Shown here: positions 22,716 to 64,000 of the stretch, one piece after another
How the letters are laid out: each line of letters begins with the position of its first letter
Position numbering within the stretch: the first letter of the stretch is position 1
IMG/VR virus record: IMGVR_UViG_3300025012_000055
Location: 27,381-91,380 of that record
Length of the DNA: 64,000 nucleotides
Direction: 5' to 3' (one strand)
From: a virus
The notes under the pieces: generated by a model
Seen by the model: only the letters and a program-made list of their open reading frames with translations
Database searches by the model: none
Told to the model about the DNA's origin: nothing
Program-made: the position numbers and the translations under genes

Positions 22716-24872
22716 ATGATAAAAACAATAACATATAAAAAATACAAAGATTTATTAAAACAGAATCTTAATGGGTCCCCAGTAAATATAATAGAACATA
22801 GCAATTTTGTAAAAAATTTATTTAAATTAGACAAAAAAGTTAATGACCAATTACAAAATAAAAAATATTCAAATAGTTCATGGTCAATTAGAAAACTTGA
22901 AATTGATAATTTTTTAAGTTATGGAAAAAATAATGTTATTGAGTTTGATAAATTAAATGGATTAGTAGGAATTTTTTCTAAAAATTTTATGGGGAAAACG
23001 GTGCTGTGTATCGATTCTTTATTGTTTTTATTTTTCAATACAACAACCAGAACATCAAAAAGTGAAGAAATTTTTAATTTATATACAAAGGATGATATTG
23101 TAAAAGTAAAAGGTTATATAAAAATTGATAATTCAAATTATATTATTGAAAGAGAAATAATAAGAAAATGGAAAAAAGATGGGACACCAAATTGTAGTAC
23201 TGAATTAAATTTTTATAAGGAATTAGATAATGATATAATAGAAAATTTGGAGGGGGAACAAAGACAAGAAACTGATAAAATAATCAAAAGTAAAATTGGA
23301 GATATGGAAGATTTTATTATGACTATTTTTACCACTGGTGATAATCTTATGAATTTTATTGAAACAAAACCCACAGAAAGAGGATTATTGTTGTGTAAAT
23401 TCCTTGGTTTAAATATATTCAAAGAGAAAGAAGAAATATGTAAAACAATATTTAATGATTGGAAAACAACATTAAAATCAAATTTATATAATATTCCGAC
23501 TTTAAAAAGTGAAATAGAAGAATTACAATCAGAAATAAAACAAAAAGAAACTCAGTTAAAAGAAAATAAAGATAAGTTAGTTATTGTTGAAAAAAACATA
23601 AAAGATACAAAAGAAACAAAGGATTCTTTATTATCTTCATTACATCAGGATATTGATGACAAATTATTAAAATCAGATCCTTTATTAATTGAAAATAAAA
23701 TAAGTGCAATAGAAAAAGATGTAACTAATAAAAAAAATGAATTAAAAGAAATTAAATTTAAAATTGATAATATTAAAGTAACATATAGTAAAATAGAACA
23801 TGAAAAATTAATACAAAAAGAAAGAGAACTATCCTCAAACGTAACAATATTAAAAAATGATATTGAAAGATTAGAAAAAGATATAAAAGAATTAAAAGAA
23901 GGAGAAATTTGTTCCAAATGTGGTCAATCATTAAAAGGTATTGATCATTCAAAAGAAATAAAAGAATTAAAAATTAAATTAGAATCAAATAATTTATCAT
24001 ATAAAAAATATAAAGAAGATTTGAATGGTACAGGACAACAATTAAAAGAATATAATGAAAATAAAGATAAAATAGAACAAAGAGATAAACTCCAACTTAA
24101 ATTTGATAGAACCGAAATTGAAATAGATTTATCAAATATAAATTTACAAAAAGAAAATGATAATTTAAAAAACTATCATAAAAATATTGATAAAATTAAT
24201 CAAAATAATAAAACAAATGAGAAGATAAGAGATATTAATTTTAAGGTTCATCAACAAGAAACAGATGAAAAAGAATTAATATCAATAATTAGAGAATTTG
24301 AAAATATTATTTTAAATAATAATAAGGATATTGAAGATAAAATAAAAATAGGAAAAGAAATAAGAGAAGAAGAAAAAATTTATAAAGTTTTTACTATCTA
24401 TTTAAGTTTGATGGGAAAAAATGGAATTTCCAAATCAATTTTACGTGATATGATTCCAAAATTAAATAATGAACTATCCAAATTATTGGAAGGAGTTGCA
24501 GAATTCACAGTTGAAGTATCAATCAATGAAAACAACCAGGAAATGGTATTGGATATGAAAGACAATAAAACTGGACTGATTAAATCATTAAAAACGGGTT
24601 CTGGATATGAAAGAACCATTGCCTCACTTGCATTAAGAGTAGTTTTAAATAAAATAAATTCTCTACCAAAACCAAATTTTATTATTTTTGATGAGCCGTT
24701 TGAAAAAGTATCAGAAGAGAATTTACAGGAGATGAGTTATTTTCTGGATAGAATAAAAAAGTATTATGATTTAATATTTTTGGTAACATTTAATTCTTTG
24801 GTAAAAGATTGGGTATCAAATGTTATAACAATAGAAAAAATAAATAATATTTCTACAATTAATTTGAATTAA
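22716..24872 (+). CDS. Rad50/SbcC (T4 gp46-like) recombination ATPase
   Basis: NFLSYG, NFMGKT Walker A, coiled coil with CSKCG zinc hook, SGYE signature, IIFDEPF Walker B. Confidence 0.92.
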   Translation: MIKTITYKKYKDLLKQNLNGSPVNIIEHSNFVKNLFKLDKKVNDQLQNKKYSNSSWSIRKLEIDNFLSYGKNNVIEFDKLNGLVGIFSKNFMGKTVLCIDSLLFLFFNTTTRTSKSEEIFNLYTKDDIVKVKGYIKIDNSNYIIEREIIRKWKKDGTPNCSTELNFYKELDNDIIENLEGEQRQETDKIIKSKIGDMEDFIMTIFTTGDNLMNFIETKPTERGLLLCKFLGLNIFKEKEEICKTIFNDWKTTLKSNLYNIPTLKSEIEELQSEIKQKETQLKENKDKLVIVEKNIKDTKETKDSLLSSLHQDIDDKLLKSDPLLIENKISAIEKDVTNKKNELKEIKFKIDNIKVTYSKIEHEKLIQKERELSSNVTILKNDIERLEKDIKELKEGEICSKCGQSLKGIDHSKEIKELKIKLESNNLSYKKYKEDLNGTGQQLKEYNENKDKIEQRDKLQLKFDRTEIEIDLSNINLQKENDNLKNYHKNIDKINQNNKTNEKIRDINFKVHQQETDEKELISIIREFENIILNNNKDIEDKIKIGKEIREEEKIYKVFTIYLSLMGKNGISKSILRDMIPKLNNELSKLLEGVAEFTVEVSINENNQEMVLDMKDNKTGLIKSLKTGSGYERTIASLALRVVLNKINSLPKPNFIIFDEPFEKVSEENLQEMSYFLDRIKKYYDLIFLVTFNSLVKDWVSNVITIEKINNISTINLN

Positions 24873-24936
24873 AAATAAACTATTGACTTTTTAATTTATT
24901 TTATTTATATTTGTAATTTAGATTATATTTATAAAC

Positions 24937-24950
24937 AAGTTCTTTGAAAT
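24937..24950 (+). promoter_or_regulatory. boxA-like antitermination element ahead of the RNA genes
   Basis: aagttctttgaaat shortly after the promoter at 24882-24913. Confidence 0.45.
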
Positions 24951-24955
24951 TAAAA

Positions 24956-25100
24956 GATATTATTTATTTAAGTGTTGGTCTTGGAATAATCCAGAAGTAA
25001 TATAATAGGAGAAACTTAATTGTGTTATCCCTTCCCATCAACCGTAGTACGTAGTATTACAACGAAGGATAAAAACACAGCTAAAATAAATAATTATATC
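24956..25100 (+). ncRNA. Unidentified structured RNA upstream of the tmRNA
   Basis: Closing helix tatttattt/aaataaata; hairpins tcttgga/tccaga, tgtgtt-atcccttc/gaaggat-aacaca, gtagtac/gtattac; no ORF. Confidence 0.5.
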
Positions 25101-25104
25101 ATAT

Positions 25105-25515
25105 GGGGATGACAGGCATTGACGTGATCAAAGTAGTCATAAAATATGTGTTTGGCATTCTGGAAAAGACAGAAGAATCGCTTAAATGGCGAATCAAACA
25201 AAGGACTCTCAAATGAGATTGCAAGGTTCTTGGTGTCAGATGAAAATCTGATTTTCAAAAATCAAGAAATTGAATTTGAAATTGCTTAACAAGGTTAAGT
25301 CAATTATATTGGAAACAGGATAGAGTTAAACTGAATAATCGGGAACAGATTTTAACTGAACATGTTTGTATAATCCAAACAATAAAATAAATCCTGATTA
25401 GTTTAGGGTAAAAGTTTGGGAACGATTCTTTAAAAATTGAACAAAAAATAACACTAAAAAAATATTTTATGTTGAAAGATTAACGGACCCGGTTTTCGAA
25501 TTACCGGCATCTCCA
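25105..25515 (+). ncRNA. ssrA: tmRNA
   Basis: 5' GGGGATGACAGGCATTGAC; 3' GGACCCGGT-TTTCGAATT-ACCGGCATCTCCA; acceptor stem with G3:U; TAAAT then resume codon GGC, tag ORF 25188-25289. Confidence 0.92.
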
Positions 25516-27071: not shown

Positions 27072-27138
27072 TTCATTTTATACTTGTTTATTTTAATTAT
27101 TTTACTTACTTTTGTATCTTGAAAGTATTTATAATAAA

Positions 27139-27210
27139 ATGAAAAACATAAATTTACATAATCTCCCACAGCTACCCAGTAATAAACATTGGGGTGGAAA
27201 ACTTATGTAA
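27139..27210 (+). CDS. Attenuator leader peptide 1 (MKNINLHNLPQLPSNKHWGGKLM)
   Basis: Codon run CTC CCA CAG CTA CCC matches downstream tRNAs Leu(TAG), Pro(TGG), Gln(TTG); lies between promoter and terminator. Confidence 0.8.
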   Translation: MKNINLHNLPQLPSNKHWGGKLM

Positions 27211-28558: not shown

Positions 28559-28639
28559 ATGAAAAACTGGTTAAACATATCAATTCATAGTAATAGTCGT
28601 AATATTATACGACCTGGAAGGGGTATGTTTATACAATAA
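28559..28639 (+). CDS. Attenuator leader peptide 2 (MKNWLNISIHSNSRNIIRPGRGMFIQ)
   Basis: 13 of codons 3-18 are decodable by the seven downstream tRNAs, and all seven are represented. Confidence 0.85.
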   Translation: MKNWLNISIHSNSRNIIRPGRGMFIQ

Positions 28640-28960: not shown

Positions 28961-29046
28961 GGAAAATAAACCAATCAGGGTATTGGGCCTATTTGCTAAA
29001 TAGTGCGTTCTGTAAAAAGAATGTGTTTCAAATACTCTGTCCTCCG
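28961..29046 (+). tRNA. tRNA-Ser(GCT), degenerate
   Basis: ctat-ttgctaa-atag, long variable arm; mismatches in acceptor and T stems. Confidence 0.6.
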
Positions 29047-29057
29047 CAAAATTATAT

Positions 29058-58938: not shown

Positions 58939-61062
58939 ATGAAAAAAACAACAATAACGAAAGAACAGGAAAAAGAAATTGTTGCCATTTATTCTTTAAC
59001 AAATATTGGAACAGAACCATTATCATTAAGGTTTAGAATTAGTAAAAAAAGAATTAATCAAATATTTAAAAACTATAATATATCAAAAAAGAAAAAAGGT
59101 AATCAAATAACAAATAATATTATAGAAATAAAAGAAAATTATAAAAAAATAAGAAGTATTTCAAGTAATAATTTTATAGTTAAGTGTAAAAAAACAAACA
59201 AAGAATTTAATGATTATAATAATAAGTCGGGAATATTAACAATTCATTTAAAAAAAATATTTCCAAACATAAAAATACCTTCAAATTATAATAAAAAATT
59301 ATTTTTAAAAGAAAATGGATTTCAATGGCATGAACAATATTTTAACATTTTATTAAAAAAAGAAAAACAAACAAGAAAATGTAAATATTGTGATTGGGAG
59401 ACAACAGATATCAAAAATAAAACTGGGTGTTATGAAATTCATTTAAAAAATACTCATAATAAAACCATAAATGAATTTATAAAACAATTTCCAGAAGAAA
59501 TAAAATATCACCCCAACTTCAAAAAAATTAAGAAAAGAAATGAATCATTCAAAGATACAGATAGTTATATTATTTGTAAAATATGTAACAAAAAACTTAA
59601 AAAATTAACAAATACTCATTTTATTCAACATGGAGTAACTGTAAAAGAATATAAAGAAAAATATTCTATATTATCAACAAATTCTTTAAATAGTACAAAA
59701 AATCAATCAAAAATAACAACAGAATATAATTTAAAACATGGGACGACATTTCCCAATAAAAAATCTTCATATGAAATTGATTTTGAAACAAAATTAAAAA
59801 AAATAAATATTAAATATATAACACCATTTATATATAAAGGAAAGAAATTTGATTTTTATTTGCCAAAAATAGATACGGTTATTGAGATTGATGGGGAAGT
59901 ATTTCATAAAAATTATTTAGAGAACTTAACAATAAAAACAATTCAAAACTCAATAAATGACTATAAAAAATCTAATTTAATCGGATATGATTTTAAATTT
60001 TATAGGATAAGATATAATAAAAATGAAATTTTTAATTCAGAAAATGAATTAATCAATTTAATTATAAATAATTCTTATACTCCAAATTATTCAATTTCCT
60101 ATAACCAAAAAATAATATTAAAAGAATATTTCAAAAATTATATTGAAACAAAGGGAAAATCAAAATTGGAAAAATATATTCCTCTTTTATTGAAATTTAT
60201 AAGAACATTTCATTCAGAGTTTCCATATCCAGAAAATAATGATAATTTAAATGATATTATTAACACTATTAAGAATTATGATTTGTCCAGGGTATATGAT
60301 GAAAACACCAACACTTTTAGTAATATTTGTTATTCAATAGGAAATACATACTTAAAATCATTATTTAAATCATACTGGGATTGTAACTATAAAGGAAATG
60401 AATCACCAATTCATGCATGGAACAACGATACCACAATGAAAAGAATTATAAAATATAGAATTGGATGTAATGATTCTAATGAAATATTTGATTTTTCACT
60501 AAAAAACCTAATAAAGGGTTTATCTGCCAACAGAAATACAATATCATTTTTTAAACCTATATTAGCAGCTTCAATATATAATCATTATTTGCCAAAAAAC
60601 ATTGAAAACCCTATAGTTTTTGATCCTTGTTGTGGATTTGGTGGAAGAATATTGGGGTTTAAATCTTTGTTCCCACATGGAAAATATATTGGATTAGAAC
60701 CAAATAAAAAGATATATGGCGAATTATCAATACTATCTTCAAAATTTGAAGATAATAATGAGTTATATAATTGTAAATTAGAAGATTTTAATAAAAATAT
60801 AAAATATGATATTTGTTTTACAAGCATTCCTTATTTTGATTTAGAGAATTATAATAATTATTTTGATTATAATTCATATAGTCAATGGAAAAAAGAATTT
60901 ATTGATAAGTTACTAACCTATAATAAGTTAATTATTAATATGTCAGAAGAATTATGTAATAAATTGAATTTAAATAAATATATTGATTCTTATATAATAA
61001 AATCTCAATCTCATTTTGGAAATAAGGAAAAAGAAGTTATGATAAAATTAAACTTTTCATAA
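58939..61062 (+). CDS. Zn-finger / PD-(D/E)xK nuclease / amino-methyltransferase fusion
   Basis: CKYC..H...H and CKIC..H...H fingers; FDFYLP..IEIDG..H; DPCCGFGGR (motif I) and FTSIPYF (motif IV). Confidence 0.75.
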   Translation: MKKTTITKEQEKEIVAIYSLTNIGTEPLSLRFRISKKRINQIFKNYNISKKKKGNQITNNIIEIKENYKKIRSISSNNFIVKCKKTNKEFNDYNNKSGILTIHLKKIFPNIKIPSNYNKKLFLKENGFQWHEQYFNILLKKEKQTRKCKYCDWETTDIKNKTGCYEIHLKNTHNKTINEFIKQFPEEIKYHPNFKKIKKRNESFKDTDSYIICKICNKKLKKLTNTHFIQHGVTVKEYKEKYSILSTNSLNSTKNQSKITTEYNLKHGTTFPNKKSSYEIDFETKLKKINIKYITPFIYKGKKFDFYLPKIDTVIEIDGEVFHKNYLENLTIKTIQNSINDYKKSNLIGYDFKFYRIRYNKNEIFNSENELINLIINNSYTPNYSISYNQKIILKEYFKNYIETKGKSKLEKYIPLLLKFIRTFHSEFPYPENNDNLNDIINTIKNYDLSRVYDENTNTFSNICYSIGNTYLKSLFKSYWDCNYKGNESPIHAWNNDTTMKRIIKYRIGCNDSNEIFDFSLKNLIKGLSANRNTISFFKPILAASIYNHYLPKNIENPIVFDPCCGFGGRILGFKSLFPHGKYIGLEPNKKIYGELSILSSKFEDNNELYNCKLEDFNKNIKYDICFTSIPYFDLENYNNYFDYNSYSQWKKEFIDKLLTYNKLIINMSEELCNKLNLNKYIDSYIIKSQSHFGNKEKEVMIKLNFS

Positions 61063-61105
61063 CTAACAACTATTTATATAAAAAAATAATTAAACTTAAT
61101 AAATT

Positions 61106-61507
61106 ATGCCACTATTTACAGATATTTGTGGGGCGGTAGATCAATTTGAAAGTACGATTGCTAATGAAATTGCCACAATGACTACTCATGCCCAATTTTT
61201 AACAGCTGCTGACAATATGTCAAGTGGGAAAACTGATATGAATCTTCAATTATCAGGTACACTTGGTACTCATGTGACTAGATTATTAATTGACAGACTA
61301 ACACTGGTTGAAGCAGATATGAGAAGGTTTTCTACAATGAAGGGTCTTGCTCAAAATATTAATCAAGTTCATGAAGTTTTAAGAGAGCATGCCAAAATTA
61401 CGGCAGCAATTATCAGGGGTGGAACAAGATGTGCAAATGGAAGTGGGACTTCTGCTGCTGATCAAAGATTTTATAAAGATACCATATTTAAAGAATTTGG
61501 CAGGTAA
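61106..61507 (+). CDS. Hypothetical late protein
   Basis: TATTTATA upstream; structural-gene-like composition. Confidence 0.6.
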   Translation: MPLFTDICGAVDQFESTIANEIATMTTHAQFLTAADNMSSGKTDMNLQLSGTLGTHVTRLLIDRLTLVEADMRRFSTMKGLAQNINQVHEVLREHAKITAAIIRGGTRCANGSGTSAADQRFYKDTIFKEFGR

Positions 61508-61579
61508 TTAAATAATTTTTTTAATTAATCTATTGACTTTTTAGAATATTTTATTTATCTTTGTATTTATAATAATATA

Positions 61580-61660
61580 ATGAAACAGATAACGACATAT
61601 TTTGGTGGAAATGGTGATGGCACAACTGATGCGATAACCATAATGGCCAGATTATGTTAA
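61580..61660 (+). CDS. Attenuator leader peptide 3 (MKQITTYFGGNGDGTTDAITIMARLC)
   Basis: TTT GGT GGA..GGT GAT GGC..GAT GCG match downstream tRNAs Phe, Gly, Asp, Ala. Confidence 0.8.
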   Translation: MKQITTYFGGNGDGTTDAITIMARLC

Positions 61661-61681
61661 AAATATAAATAACAACTATAT

Positions 61682-61716
61682 AAAAACCCTGGCTAATAAA
61701 AAGTCAGGGTTTTTTT
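61682..61716 (+). terminator. Intrinsic terminator/attenuator before tRNA cluster 3
   Basis: aaaaaccctggct..agtcagggttttttt; the 5' arm is complementary to tggccag 61644-61650. Confidence 0.85.
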
Positions 61717-61731
61717 GTTTATATGATAAAT

Positions 61732-61808
61732 GGTGATACAGCATATTGGTGCATGTTGCTTCCCTGTCACGGAAGAGATTGTCGGTTCAAATCCGTCTAT
61801 CACCGCCA
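61732..61808 (+). tRNA. tRNA-Asp(GTC)
   Basis: cttcc-ctgtcac-ggaag; G73 and encoded CCA. Confidence 0.88.
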
Positions 61809-61809
61809 A

Positions 61810-61882
61810 GGAACTTTGGTGTAGGTGGTCTGCACAACTGTTTGAAGCACAGTGGGTCTTTGTTCGATTCAAAGAGGTTCCA
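61810..61882 (+). tRNA. tRNA-Phe(GAA)
   Basis: actgt-ttgaagc-acagt; ggaactt/aggttcc. Confidence 0.85.
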
Positions 61883-61902
61883 CAAGGTTATTCATTTTTA
61901 CA

Positions 61903-63132
61903 TCAAACATTACATTTGAGTTCAAATGATTTTACAAATTCAACTTTGTATGGGTTAAACCCTAACCCTATATTCCTTATGTTACTTATGAATTTTTCAC
62001 ATTCAGGAATTACTTTTGATTTTAACATTATTCCAATTGCACCATTAACATCAGCATTTATTGTTTTGCCAATACTACTTAAAAATAAACCACGCTTTAT
62101 TCTTTTGCCAAGATAAATTGCTTGTTTTTGTATCGGTTCAAATGCCAAATGGTCGCATTTACTGGTATAACTTTCTTCCTGCTCAACAAGTTTTATGCTG
62201 TTGAGTTCTAACTTATATTTTATTTTATCTATAAGTTTGGCATGAGGGATAGAAACAAAATTCTGGTTATTACGGCTACCAATATTTATTTTCTTCTTCC
62301 AATGTTCATTTTTACCGATAACAACTGTCCCAATATTATACTTTAAACAGTATTTAAGAATGAAATCGCCTACCTGGTGCATTGCATTTTCTATCTTGTT
62401 ATTCCTGTCAAAAGTTAATTTATTTATTCTGTTTGACGTCCCTTTATTACCAACATAACTCATTAACTTGGCTCGCTTTTTATTAAAATACGCATTGATG
62501 GATTTTAATCCTCTACCGTTGATAATGAAAGGATTATTACCGACATTATCTATTGCTGTGATAAGATTGTTTAATCCCAAATCAATGCTTAATACATTTT
62601 CTTCTTTTATTTTTTCATGTTTTACCTCCTTTTTTTCATAGACAACTTCTATTACAAAACAAGTTGCTTGTGGAATTATTCTCACTTGTGATATATTATC
62701 TACTTTTGTTTTTAATGGTTGAATATTTGCTTGTTTTGGAAAATGTATAAGTCCCCCTTTTAAATTAACTTGCTGATTAGTGAAAATGCAAATAGAATAT
62801 CCAGCCTTATCTTTGTATTTTGGTTGCTTAGGGTTTCCTTTAAATTTGCTTGGGCATTTTTTATATTCTTTTAATGCTTTGAAATATGACTTCCAGTTCT
62901 TAAAAAGTAATTTTATTATTTGCTGCGATGTTTGTGCCGGCAATGCCCTATAATCTTCCTGGTTAAATTCAGCAAGCAATTTAGATAATTCATATTCCTC
63001 AAATTTCTGTATATTACCAAAAAATGCTTGCCGTTTGTGATAATTACAAAAATTATACAATCTGGCTGATTTAAAACAAATATCCTCTATTGCTTTATCG
63101 TTTATCCTAATATGTCGCTCTACGAGTTGCAT
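61903..63132 (-). mobile_element. tnpB: TnpB (MQLVE-type) inserted within tRNA cluster 3
   Basis: SIDLG, INGRGLKSIN, EESYTSKC, GKRIKRGLF, NADVNGA. Confidence 0.92.
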
Positions 63133-63251
63133 TATTTATATAAAACTTAAAGTTTTACACTTATAAATATCTTTCTAAAATAAAAAACTCAATAAAATGA
63201 ATACATAAGAAATAAATAATATCAAAAATTACTATTTATATAAGATAATGT

Positions 63252-63327
63252 GCATCAGTAGCTCAATTGGTAGAGCGCCGGTCTTCCAAATCGGAGGTTG
63301 TGGGATCATAGCCCATCTGATGCTCCA
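63252..63327 (+). tRNA. tRNA-Gly(TCC)
   Basis: ccggt-cttccaa-atcgg; U73 and CCA. Confidence 0.88.
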
Positions 63328-63342
63328 GATTAAATAAAATAT

Positions 63343-63415
63343 GGGGGTACATGTACCAAGGCTGGCGAAGAGCATTTGCAATGCTTTTGGGTGGATTGGA
63401 TTTCCACTATCTCCA
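63343..63415 (+). tRNA. tRNA-Ala(TGC)
   Basis: gagca-tttgcaa-tgctt; G3:U70; A73. Confidence 0.8.
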
Positions 63416-63475
63416 CTAAATATATAAATGATTTCTTTTTCAATCATCAAACTATTTATATAAAAATATATTCTT

Positions 63476-64000
63476 ATGGCAGATATCACAACAAGTGAAA
63501 AAGACAAATTATTTACAAGAATAAAACATCAACTTGGTGCCCCATTAAGACAAATTGAAATTGATAATTCTCAACTGGAAACATTTCTTGAAATATCAAT
63601 TGAAGATTATTCATCTTATGTTAATAATTGGCTAATTGATCAGCAGTGGGATAGTTTAATAGGTTTAGATACAAATTCAACAGATTTATCCTTTGCATTT
63701 ACTACACGTTCTTTAGATTTCACAAGGTCATTTAGTTTTGCATATTCAAAACAAGTTGGCCTTGGAACAAATAGTCCCTGGGAACTTAAAAAAGATTTTG
63801 TTGTTATTACTGCCGGAACACAAGTTTATACAATACCAAAAAACAGGGAAGTTAATGAAGTTTTATGGGTAACTCCCCCATTAATAGATAGAGGTTTAAT
63901 AGATCCATTTTCAAGGTCTAATTGGTCAGCAGAACAATTTGGATGGAGTTATATTGGTCGTGCTGCGGAATATGTTCAACCTGTGTTTAATATTTTATTA
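63476..64000 (+). CDS. Neck protein (gp13-like), runs off the window
   Basis: MADITTSEKDKLFTRIKHQLGAPLRQIEIDNSQL; LG.P...E...Q motif of T4 gp13-like proteins. Confidence 0.8.
   Translation, partial: MADITTSEKDKLFTRIKHQLGAPLRQIEIDNSQLETFLEISIEDYSSYVNNWLIDQQWDSLIGLDTNSTDLSFAFTTRSLDFTRSFSFAYSKQVGLGTNSPWELKKDFVVITAGTQVYTIPKNREVNEVLWVTPPLIDRGLIDPFSRSNWSAEQFGWSYIGRAAEYVQPVFNILL

Follow-up and report, generated by a model that had tools for sequence, protein, structure and literature searches.

Transcription attenuation by a translated leader peptide is textbook regulation for amino-acid operons. The closest described systems are the enterobacterial multivalent leaders (such as thr, with Thr and Ile codons, and ilvGMEDA, with Ile, Leu and Val codons; trpL, hisL and pheL belong to the same group). 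In these, a short leader open reading frame (ORF) and a terminator precede the regulated genes, the leader RNA forms mutually exclusive 1:2, 2:3 and 3:4 structures, the stop codon is so placed that a ribosome finishing the leader covers segment 2, and several kinds of regulatory codon may be present in one leader. These features appear to recur in a stretch of viral DNA of 64,000 nucleotides (nt), here called the window, which makes up the last 64 kb of the 91-kb linear virus record IMGVR_UViG_3300025012_000055. The subject here is its module 3: a promoter, a leader ORF, a large hairpin and a terminator that precede a block of phage tRNA genes, inside which a TnpB cassette is found (Table 1). 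The sequence of module 3 argues, at a probability that we put at about 0.7, for a ribosome-mediated (leader-peptide) transcription attenuator gating a phage tRNA operon. We favor this reading because module 3 is the third such module in the window and because four related phages repeat the design, with leaders that mirror the tRNAs encoded downstream.

The locus also departs from the enterobacterial leaders. The genes that it would regulate encode phage tRNAs and not biosynthetic enzymes or synthetases, and what a response would replenish is the tRNA itself instead of the amino acid. Regulatory codons of four or five kinds are dispersed through the leader instead of forming a run, and the promoter is of the Bacteroidota type. 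A full-text literature search found no paper describing a leader peptide before tRNA genes. In Rfam, the nearest full-length match to positions 61560-61693 is the Bacteroidete tryptophan peptide leader RNA (RF01692). The alignment runs end to end over an A-rich start region, the ORF and the large hairpin, but at 27.9 bits (E = 2) it stays below the gathering threshold of 49; module 3, which lacks Trp codons and precedes tRNA genes, is not a member of that family. No T-box or riboswitch was matched in Rfam up to E = 10 over 61500-63500, the only matches being weak terminator-like ones.

Table 1. Features of module 3, in order along the window, followed by the other two tRNA leaders of the window.
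Feature	Position	Strand	Remarks
Bacteroidota-type promoter	61533-61563	+	TTG 61533-61535 and TAnnTTTG box 61556-61563, 20 nt apart; read from the sequence
Late-type motif (TATTTATA core)	61564-61575	+	adjoins the promoter box, ends 4 nt 5' of the leader start codon; function presumed
Leader ORF, 26 codons	61580-61660	+	stop codon 61658-61660
1:2 hairpin (anti-antiterminator)	61594-61658	+	outer arms 61595-61606 and 61646-61657; ends 1 nt before the stop codon
Antiterminator	61644-61695	+	61644-61650 with 61689-61695, plus A-U helix 61652-61657 with 61678-61683
Intrinsic terminator	61682-61718	+	13-pair stem, 7-nt loop, T run; 14 nt 5' of tRNA-Asp
tRNA-Asp (GUC)	61732-61808	+	ARAGORN; Rfam 46.6 bits
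tRNA-Phe (GAA)	61810-61883	+	intact, 1-2 nt 5' of the TnpB cassette; ARAGORN; Rfam 52.6 bits
TnpB cassette	61885-63140	-	ORF 61903-63132 (409 amino acids); 18 nt after stop, ~8 nt before start
AT-rich spacer, 111 nt	63141-63251		outside the conserved cassette; no covariance match
tRNA-Gly (UCC)	63252-63327	+	ARAGORN; Rfam 61.7 bits
Probable tRNA-Ala (UGC)	63345-63416	+	odd D arm and T loop, G3-U70 pair; ARAGORN at 80% threshold only
Leader 1	27139-27210		before tRNAs Pro (UGG), Leu (UAG) and Gln (UUG)
Leader 2	28559-28639		before tRNAs Asn, Ser (UGA), Trp, Ser (GCU), Ile, Arg and His

The anatomy of module 3 can be read directly. The initial annotation of this DNA, made from the letters alone, had proposed an attenuator here, and the leader, the competing pairings, the terminator, the tRNA genes and TnpB are all where it had put them, the Ala gene being a weak call. 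The 1:2 hairpin spans the ORF with a folding energy of -23.3 kcal/mol (z score -4.77), and equally stable folds arose in none of 200 shuffles. Segment 2 ends at 61657, directly adjoining the stop codon. The folding logic emerges when the transcript, up to the terminator loop, is folded with the footprint of a ribosome masked. The three modules of the window all followed the logic of a classical attenuator. In the absence of a ribosome, the fold contains the large hairpin and leaves the 5' arm of the terminator free. A ribosome early in the leader (up to about codon 11, 15 and 17 in modules 1, 2 and 3, respectively) lets segment 2 base-pair with this arm, and a ribosome past these codons or on the stop codon leaves the arm free once more. 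In module 3, the codons up to about 17, the stall window, comprise four for Thr, four for Gly, two for Asp and one for Phe.

These folds suggest how the module would most probably work. Transcripts would start at the host-type promoter, or in the late gene upstream, and run into the 26-codon leader. When the leader is untranslated, or the ribosome has reached the stop codon, segment 2 (61644-61657) would be held in the ORF hairpin or lie under the ribosome; being unavailable, it would leave the terminator (61682-61714) to form, and the tRNA genes would not be transcribed. A ribosome held within the first ~17 codons would instead leave segment 2 free to sequester the terminator's upper 5' arm, so that RNA polymerase could enter the genes of tRNA-Asp and tRNA-Phe and, probably, those of tRNA-Gly and tRNA-Ala. 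The result would be a feedback loop in which slow decoding yields more phage tRNA. Leader translation, stalling, read-through and feedback are what we infer from the arrangement.

The phage behind the record is uncultured, and copies of the window DNA recur in groundwater metagenomes; the 16 public sequencing runs listed with window DNA are all DNA runs, and groundwater runs among them (X1-X4) contain 0.94-0.96 of its sequence words. The record has 25.8% G+C and, by a completeness estimate, covers ~28% of the genome, the other 72% being missing. The window encodes a Gp23-type major capsid protein whose closest relatives in IMG/VR belong to jumbo T4-like phages of 200-365 kb (67-71% identity); INPHARED holds no close relative. 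Four related jumbo phages were compared (capsid loci L002, L003, L006 and L009), with major capsid proteins 68-70% identical to that of the window. Three of them are complete and carry ~50 tRNAs each, and the fourth carries ~17. They contribute 16 modules, which with the three of the window make a set of 19.

All three tRNA clusters of the window share the layout of promoter, ORF, hairpin and terminator, and in leader 2, 17 of the 25 residues are cognate to the seven tRNAs downstream (p = 0.00017). In the relatives there are four families of leader, each following a promoter, preceding a terminator and heading a block of tRNA genes; no tRNA block of these four phages is without such a module. 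A leader rich in Pro, His and Gln heads Pro, His and Gln tRNAs; one rich in Asp, Glu, Val, Leu, Ala and Trp heads exactly those tRNAs; one rich in Tyr and Lys heads Tyr and Lys tRNAs; and one rich in Ser, Thr, Ile, Asn, Gly, Arg, Phe and Cys heads tRNAs for those residues. Residues of the downstream tRNAs are enriched in the leaders of all 16 modules of the relatives, and the 12 leaders tested in three relatives have p values between 0.06 and 6e-8 for enrichment in own-block residues. The leader's pairing partner of the terminator's 5' arm covaries with that arm between genomes; in shuffle tests of 15 modules, this antiterminator pairing outdid at least 98% of shuffles in 13 and 99% in 12. Over the whole set, 46 of the 57 leader residues represented by at least four codons (81%) have a cognate tRNA in the block and 11 do not. 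This comparative pattern is a matter of observation, and it makes the general attenuator reading across modules, the one proposed by the initial annotation for the sequence before these tRNA genes, well supported on comparative grounds.

Two details of these blocks may be added. The class II tRNA-Ser (GCU) of the second window cluster (28961-29047) was found at a relaxed ARAGORN threshold only; it would read the AGT codon, which leader 2 contains twice. In each of the relatives G003, G004 and G005 (L112, L116 and L119), the tRNA array has at its far end a tRNA with a CUA anticodon, labeled Pyl by ARAGORN, and these are possible amber suppressors.

Module 3 itself is among the weaker examples of the tested modules, and several of its properties weigh against the attenuator reading. 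Of the antiterminators of the window's three modules, its own is the weakest: the duplex sequesters only 7 nt of the terminator arm, is marginal when taken alone (-10.1 kcal/mol, z score -1.6), and is matched by 6.7% of shuffled leaders. The pairing that the initial annotation had named (61644-61650 with 61689-61695) thus exists, but by itself it does little to distinguish the leader from shuffled sequence. The leader (Thr five times, Gly four, Ile three, Asp and Ala twice each, Phe once) is only modestly enriched in residues cognate to the tRNAs of its block, these being 9 of 25 where the background frequency is 0.19 (p = 0.036). Asp and Phe, whose tRNA genes lie directly 3' of the terminator, are not enriched at all (3 of 25, p = 0.54), while Thr, the top residue, has no tRNA here. 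The tRNA-Ala gene is a weak call. Finally, 1.25 kb of antisense TnpB now lies between tRNA-Phe and tRNA-Gly, and read-through over this distance may be stopped, for instance by Rho or by polymerase collision.

One alternative is that the ORF is not translated at all. The hairpin and the terminator would then end the transcript of the upstream late gene (61106-61507), or release a small RNA, and the tRNAs would be made by leak-through or from another start. The terminator is indeed strong and wins every plain thermodynamic fold, late transcripts from the motif at 61070 need an end somewhere, and a ribosome-binding signal cannot be scored in this lineage. The comparison argues otherwise. All 19 modules have an open frame, of 23-45 codons, that starts at a similar distance past the promoter, when the chance of one such frame is ~0.1 at 26% G+C (an estimate from base composition); leader composition follows the downstream tRNAs across rearranged blocks; and segment 2 ends at the stop codon in module 3 and at or within ~8 codons of it elsewhere. 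We therefore regard a purely untranslated leader as very improbable.

Granting an attenuator, how far does its operon extend? The cassette is inserted on the opposite strand between tRNA-Phe and the native spacer, and TnpB therefore now stands inside the block. That the Asp, Phe, Gly and Ala genes once formed one operon, later split by TnpB, as the initial annotation had it, appears somewhat more probable than not. The support is moderate: the ends of the cassette are sharp, the flanking tRNAs are intact, HNH genes occur within tRNA blocks of two relatives, and Gly and Ala together account for 6 of the 25 leader residues (p = 0.012), an enrichment that Asp and Phe do not share. Alternatively, the attenuator may be real but gate Asp and Phe only, Gly and Ala having always been a separate late unit under the motif at 63232; the Gly, Ala and Thr codons would then be inherited from the leader of a larger block and be uninformative on present or recent gene content, and a tRNA-Thr would never have been here. 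In keeping with this, the spacer lies outside the cassette and bears the phage's own late motif 9 nt before tRNA-Gly. Leaders of relatives, too, keep abundant residues without a cognate tRNA: one Tyr/Lys leader has unmatched Thr (four codons) and Gly (five), and in the 334-kb relative G002 the leaders retain Ala, Trp, Thr and Gly codons before blocks that lack those tRNAs. The nearest relatives have only a tRNA-Met at the site, so the block is recent and may have arrived incomplete. We nevertheless consider separate units unlikely, if worth keeping in mind, since it is Gly and Ala, and not the residues of the leader-adjacent tRNAs, that are enriched in leader 3; gaps of 100-300 nt and selfish genes within single blocks are common in the relatives, and no strong plus-strand terminator lies between tRNA-Phe and tRNA-Gly.

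The leader's Thr codons (ACG, ACA, ACA, ACT and ACC) had led the initial annotation to predict a missing tRNA-Thr and, from the GGT and GGC among the Gly codons (GGT, GGA, GGT and GGC), perhaps a missing tRNA-Gly (GCC). Its statement that neither has a matching tRNA holds for more than the block, as no tRNA-Thr or tRNA-Gly (GCC) occurs anywhere on the 91-kb contig. The loss of a tRNA-Thr is a reasonable hypothesis, which the data at hand neither favor nor contradict. In its explicit form, tRNA-Thr, and perhaps tRNA-Gly (GCC), was formerly in the block and was lost, possibly when TnpB arrived, with the leader recording the former content. Thr is the commonest residue of the leader (5 of 25, p = 0.012), four of its five codons fall inside the stall window, and feedback through Thr codons is sensible only with a tRNA-Thr among the products. 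The 81% agreement between abundant leader residues and downstream tRNAs points the same way, as do three leaders of the Cys/Asn/Ile type with 4-5 Thr codons, all of which have tRNA-Thr, plus tRNAs for Phe, Gly (UCC) and Gly (GCC). Thus Thr-rich leaders are not regularly without a tRNA-Thr: three of the five leaders with at least four Thr codons have it. The other two do not, and the rule leaks.

Several findings count against such a loss. Neither the spacer nor the cassette ends retain a remnant of a tRNA, the flanks being AT-only or intact tRNAs; a remnant in the spacer or 3' of tRNA-Ala was looked for and rejected, these sequences being nearly pure A+T without a covariance match. No contig skipping TnpB was found at 61100-63900 in four groundwater/soil runs, a result of little weight because the contigs are short and 2-6x deep; the sole apparent joint in the run contigs over this interval was an artefact, produced by the recurring late motif. 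In relatives, neither a Thr tRNA nor a leader is present at the syntenic site, and 72% of the genome is missing from the record. The tRNA-Gly (GCC) need not be missing in the first place, because a UCC anticodon with an unmodified U34 can read all four Gly codons, a behavior established in mycoplasmas and plastids. That the block once held a tRNA-Thr is, in our view, rather unlikely. The five Thr codons may be a relic of an ancestral leader, or an answer to a tRNA-Thr that was lost or that lies in the unsequenced 72%. The most ambitious version would have multivalent leaders homeostatically control phage tRNA supply and also record former operon content, with module 3 a working sensor of tRNA shortage whose stall-window Thr codons mark a tRNA-Thr removed or relocated at TnpB entry; as a whole, this chain of suppositions is doubtful.

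The syntenic site offers no ancestral form of the block. Module 3 sits in a region of late structural genes that has no tRNA block in the relatives: among 80 relatives found through the major capsid protein, none has a tRNA within 10 kb of the capsid gene, and of the 80 retrieved with the gene that follows the block, none shows a credible cluster of tRNAs ahead of that gene. The block at this site is therefore particular to the lineage of the window. The 133-amino-acid protein encoded upstream has no match in IMG/VR and only two in metagenome contigs, L123 and L124. L123 ends 7 nt past the promoter box, and no leader is visible. In L124 (1700-1845; upstream protein 66% identical) tRNA-Met (CAU) comes directly after a host-type promoter, and neither a leader ORF nor a terminator is present. 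A degenerate DNA pattern written for the leader-peptide core had zero matches in IMG/VR, and a degenerate pattern for the early promoter gave, among the matches listed, only scattered singles in unrelated AT-rich viruses.

The TnpB cassette is a discrete mobile unit. A copy in another phage contig, the IMG/VR locus L125, is 84.3% identical over 1256 nt (61885 to ~63140), and past both ends the flanks are unrelated, so that the unit has sharp common ends in two contexts. The protein has the Pfam domains OrfB_IS605 (PF01385, 58.7 bits, E = 8.6e-16) and TNB (PF07282, 34.4 bits, E = 2.5e-8), both above their cut-offs, and Asp, Glu and Asp residues in contexts resembling the three RuvC motifs, as in the TnpB elements of the IS200/IS605 group. 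It differs from these in that the zinc-finger cysteines are not evident, and the cassette differs in having only ~8 and 18 nt flanking the ORF. No tnpA gene, subterminal end hairpins or shared flank or target motif was found in the window and L125 copies, and no solved structure matches the protein by sequence. In L125 (1460-2790) the copy lies between imperfect direct repeats of ~27 nt that contain a palindrome. The IMG/VR sample of L125 also contains a contig, L126, that is identical to the window from 63506 on. TnpB proteins of IS200/IS605 elements use a guide RNA read from the flank after the right end. If the window TnpB were so guided (61885-61902, with the flank 61865-61884), the guide would be antisense to the acceptor and T arm of tRNA-Phe. 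Selfish genes of another kind occupy tRNA blocks in two relatives: in G004 an HNH endonuclease gene lies between the terminator and the first tRNA-Pro (region L114, ~1316-2111 of the fetched stretch), and in G002 one lies, on the minus strand, between tRNA-Phe and tRNA-Asn (region L120-L121).

The weak call of tRNA-Ala deserves comment. The candidate was missed by ARAGORN at its default setting and has no Rfam match at E <= 10 (the cut-off for RF00005 is 29 bits). Its homologue in the 634-kb phage record LR745206.1, a tRNA-Ala (UGC), is 77% identical, and the acceptor and anticodon stems show compensatory changes. On these grounds we accept the candidate as probably a real, if unusual, tRNA.

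Two kinds of promoter-like sequence surround the block. The TTG ... TAnnTTTG promoter, of a kind familiar from Bacteroidota, precedes many genes of the record; the box and the upstream context seen in module 3 also precede many early genes and the other two leaders. The late-type motif is distinct. The pattern TATTTATA[AT]AA occurs 15 times in the contig, as against 4.9 +/- 2.0 in shuffles, and eight of the copies are correctly oriented toward an ORF that starts no more than 60 nt downstream. An 11-mer version has three exact copies, at 61070, 63232 and 63452, the outer two of which are 12-24 nt before late genes. The middle copy (63232-63242, plus strand) is the one before tRNA-Gly; the spacer also holds a reverse-complement core at 63162-63169, facing TnpB. 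With this motif in the spacer just 5' of tRNA-Gly, Gly and Ala would probably also have late expression of their own. The initial annotation had seen in the motif near 63233 a means of now driving Gly and Ala separately; the match to the phage's late-gene motif is in keeping with this, but the motif probably predates TnpB rather than compensating for its insertion, as its position outside the conserved cassette makes it more likely native than a later repair.

The late-type motif is also found at the leaders. The 12-mer of 61564-61575 has eight copies in the window, one before leader 1 (at 27126) and several before late genes. Before leaders 1 (27126-27137) and 3 (61564-61575), the TATTTATA motif abuts the host-type box, 1-4 nt ahead of the start codon. 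These two leaders may therefore have two types of promoter, and late in infection they are perhaps carried on nearly leaderless RNAs. A TATAAATA at 61664 was considered as a plus-strand late promoter and ruled out, the phage motif reading TATTTATA on the coding strand.

If the attenuator reading is true, giant phages would gauge decoding speed codon by codon and top up only those tRNAs that are in shortage. This would bear on why phages carry tRNAs at all, on growth in hosts with differing codon usage, and on host nucleases that cut tRNAs. Selfish genes, TnpB here and HNH in the relatives, settle within these probably attenuator-regulated tRNA blocks. As the leader and the tRNA content can drift apart, the use of a leader for predicting gene content is limited. 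If leaders do record lost tRNAs, mismatches between leader and tRNAs could serve to time the gain and loss of tRNA genes in giant phages.

Two other stretches of the window may be mentioned. At 24870-25400, a promoter of the subtype found in modules 2 and 3 is followed by a stretch richer in G+C and without a long ORF. Neither ARAGORN, with its tmRNA search included, nor Rfam at gathering score found a tmRNA or other RNA gene there; the stretch is probably a structured RNA. At 58939-61062, between the capsid gene and the late gene for the 133-amino-acid protein, lies an ORF of 707 amino acids with a ROS/MucR-type domain.

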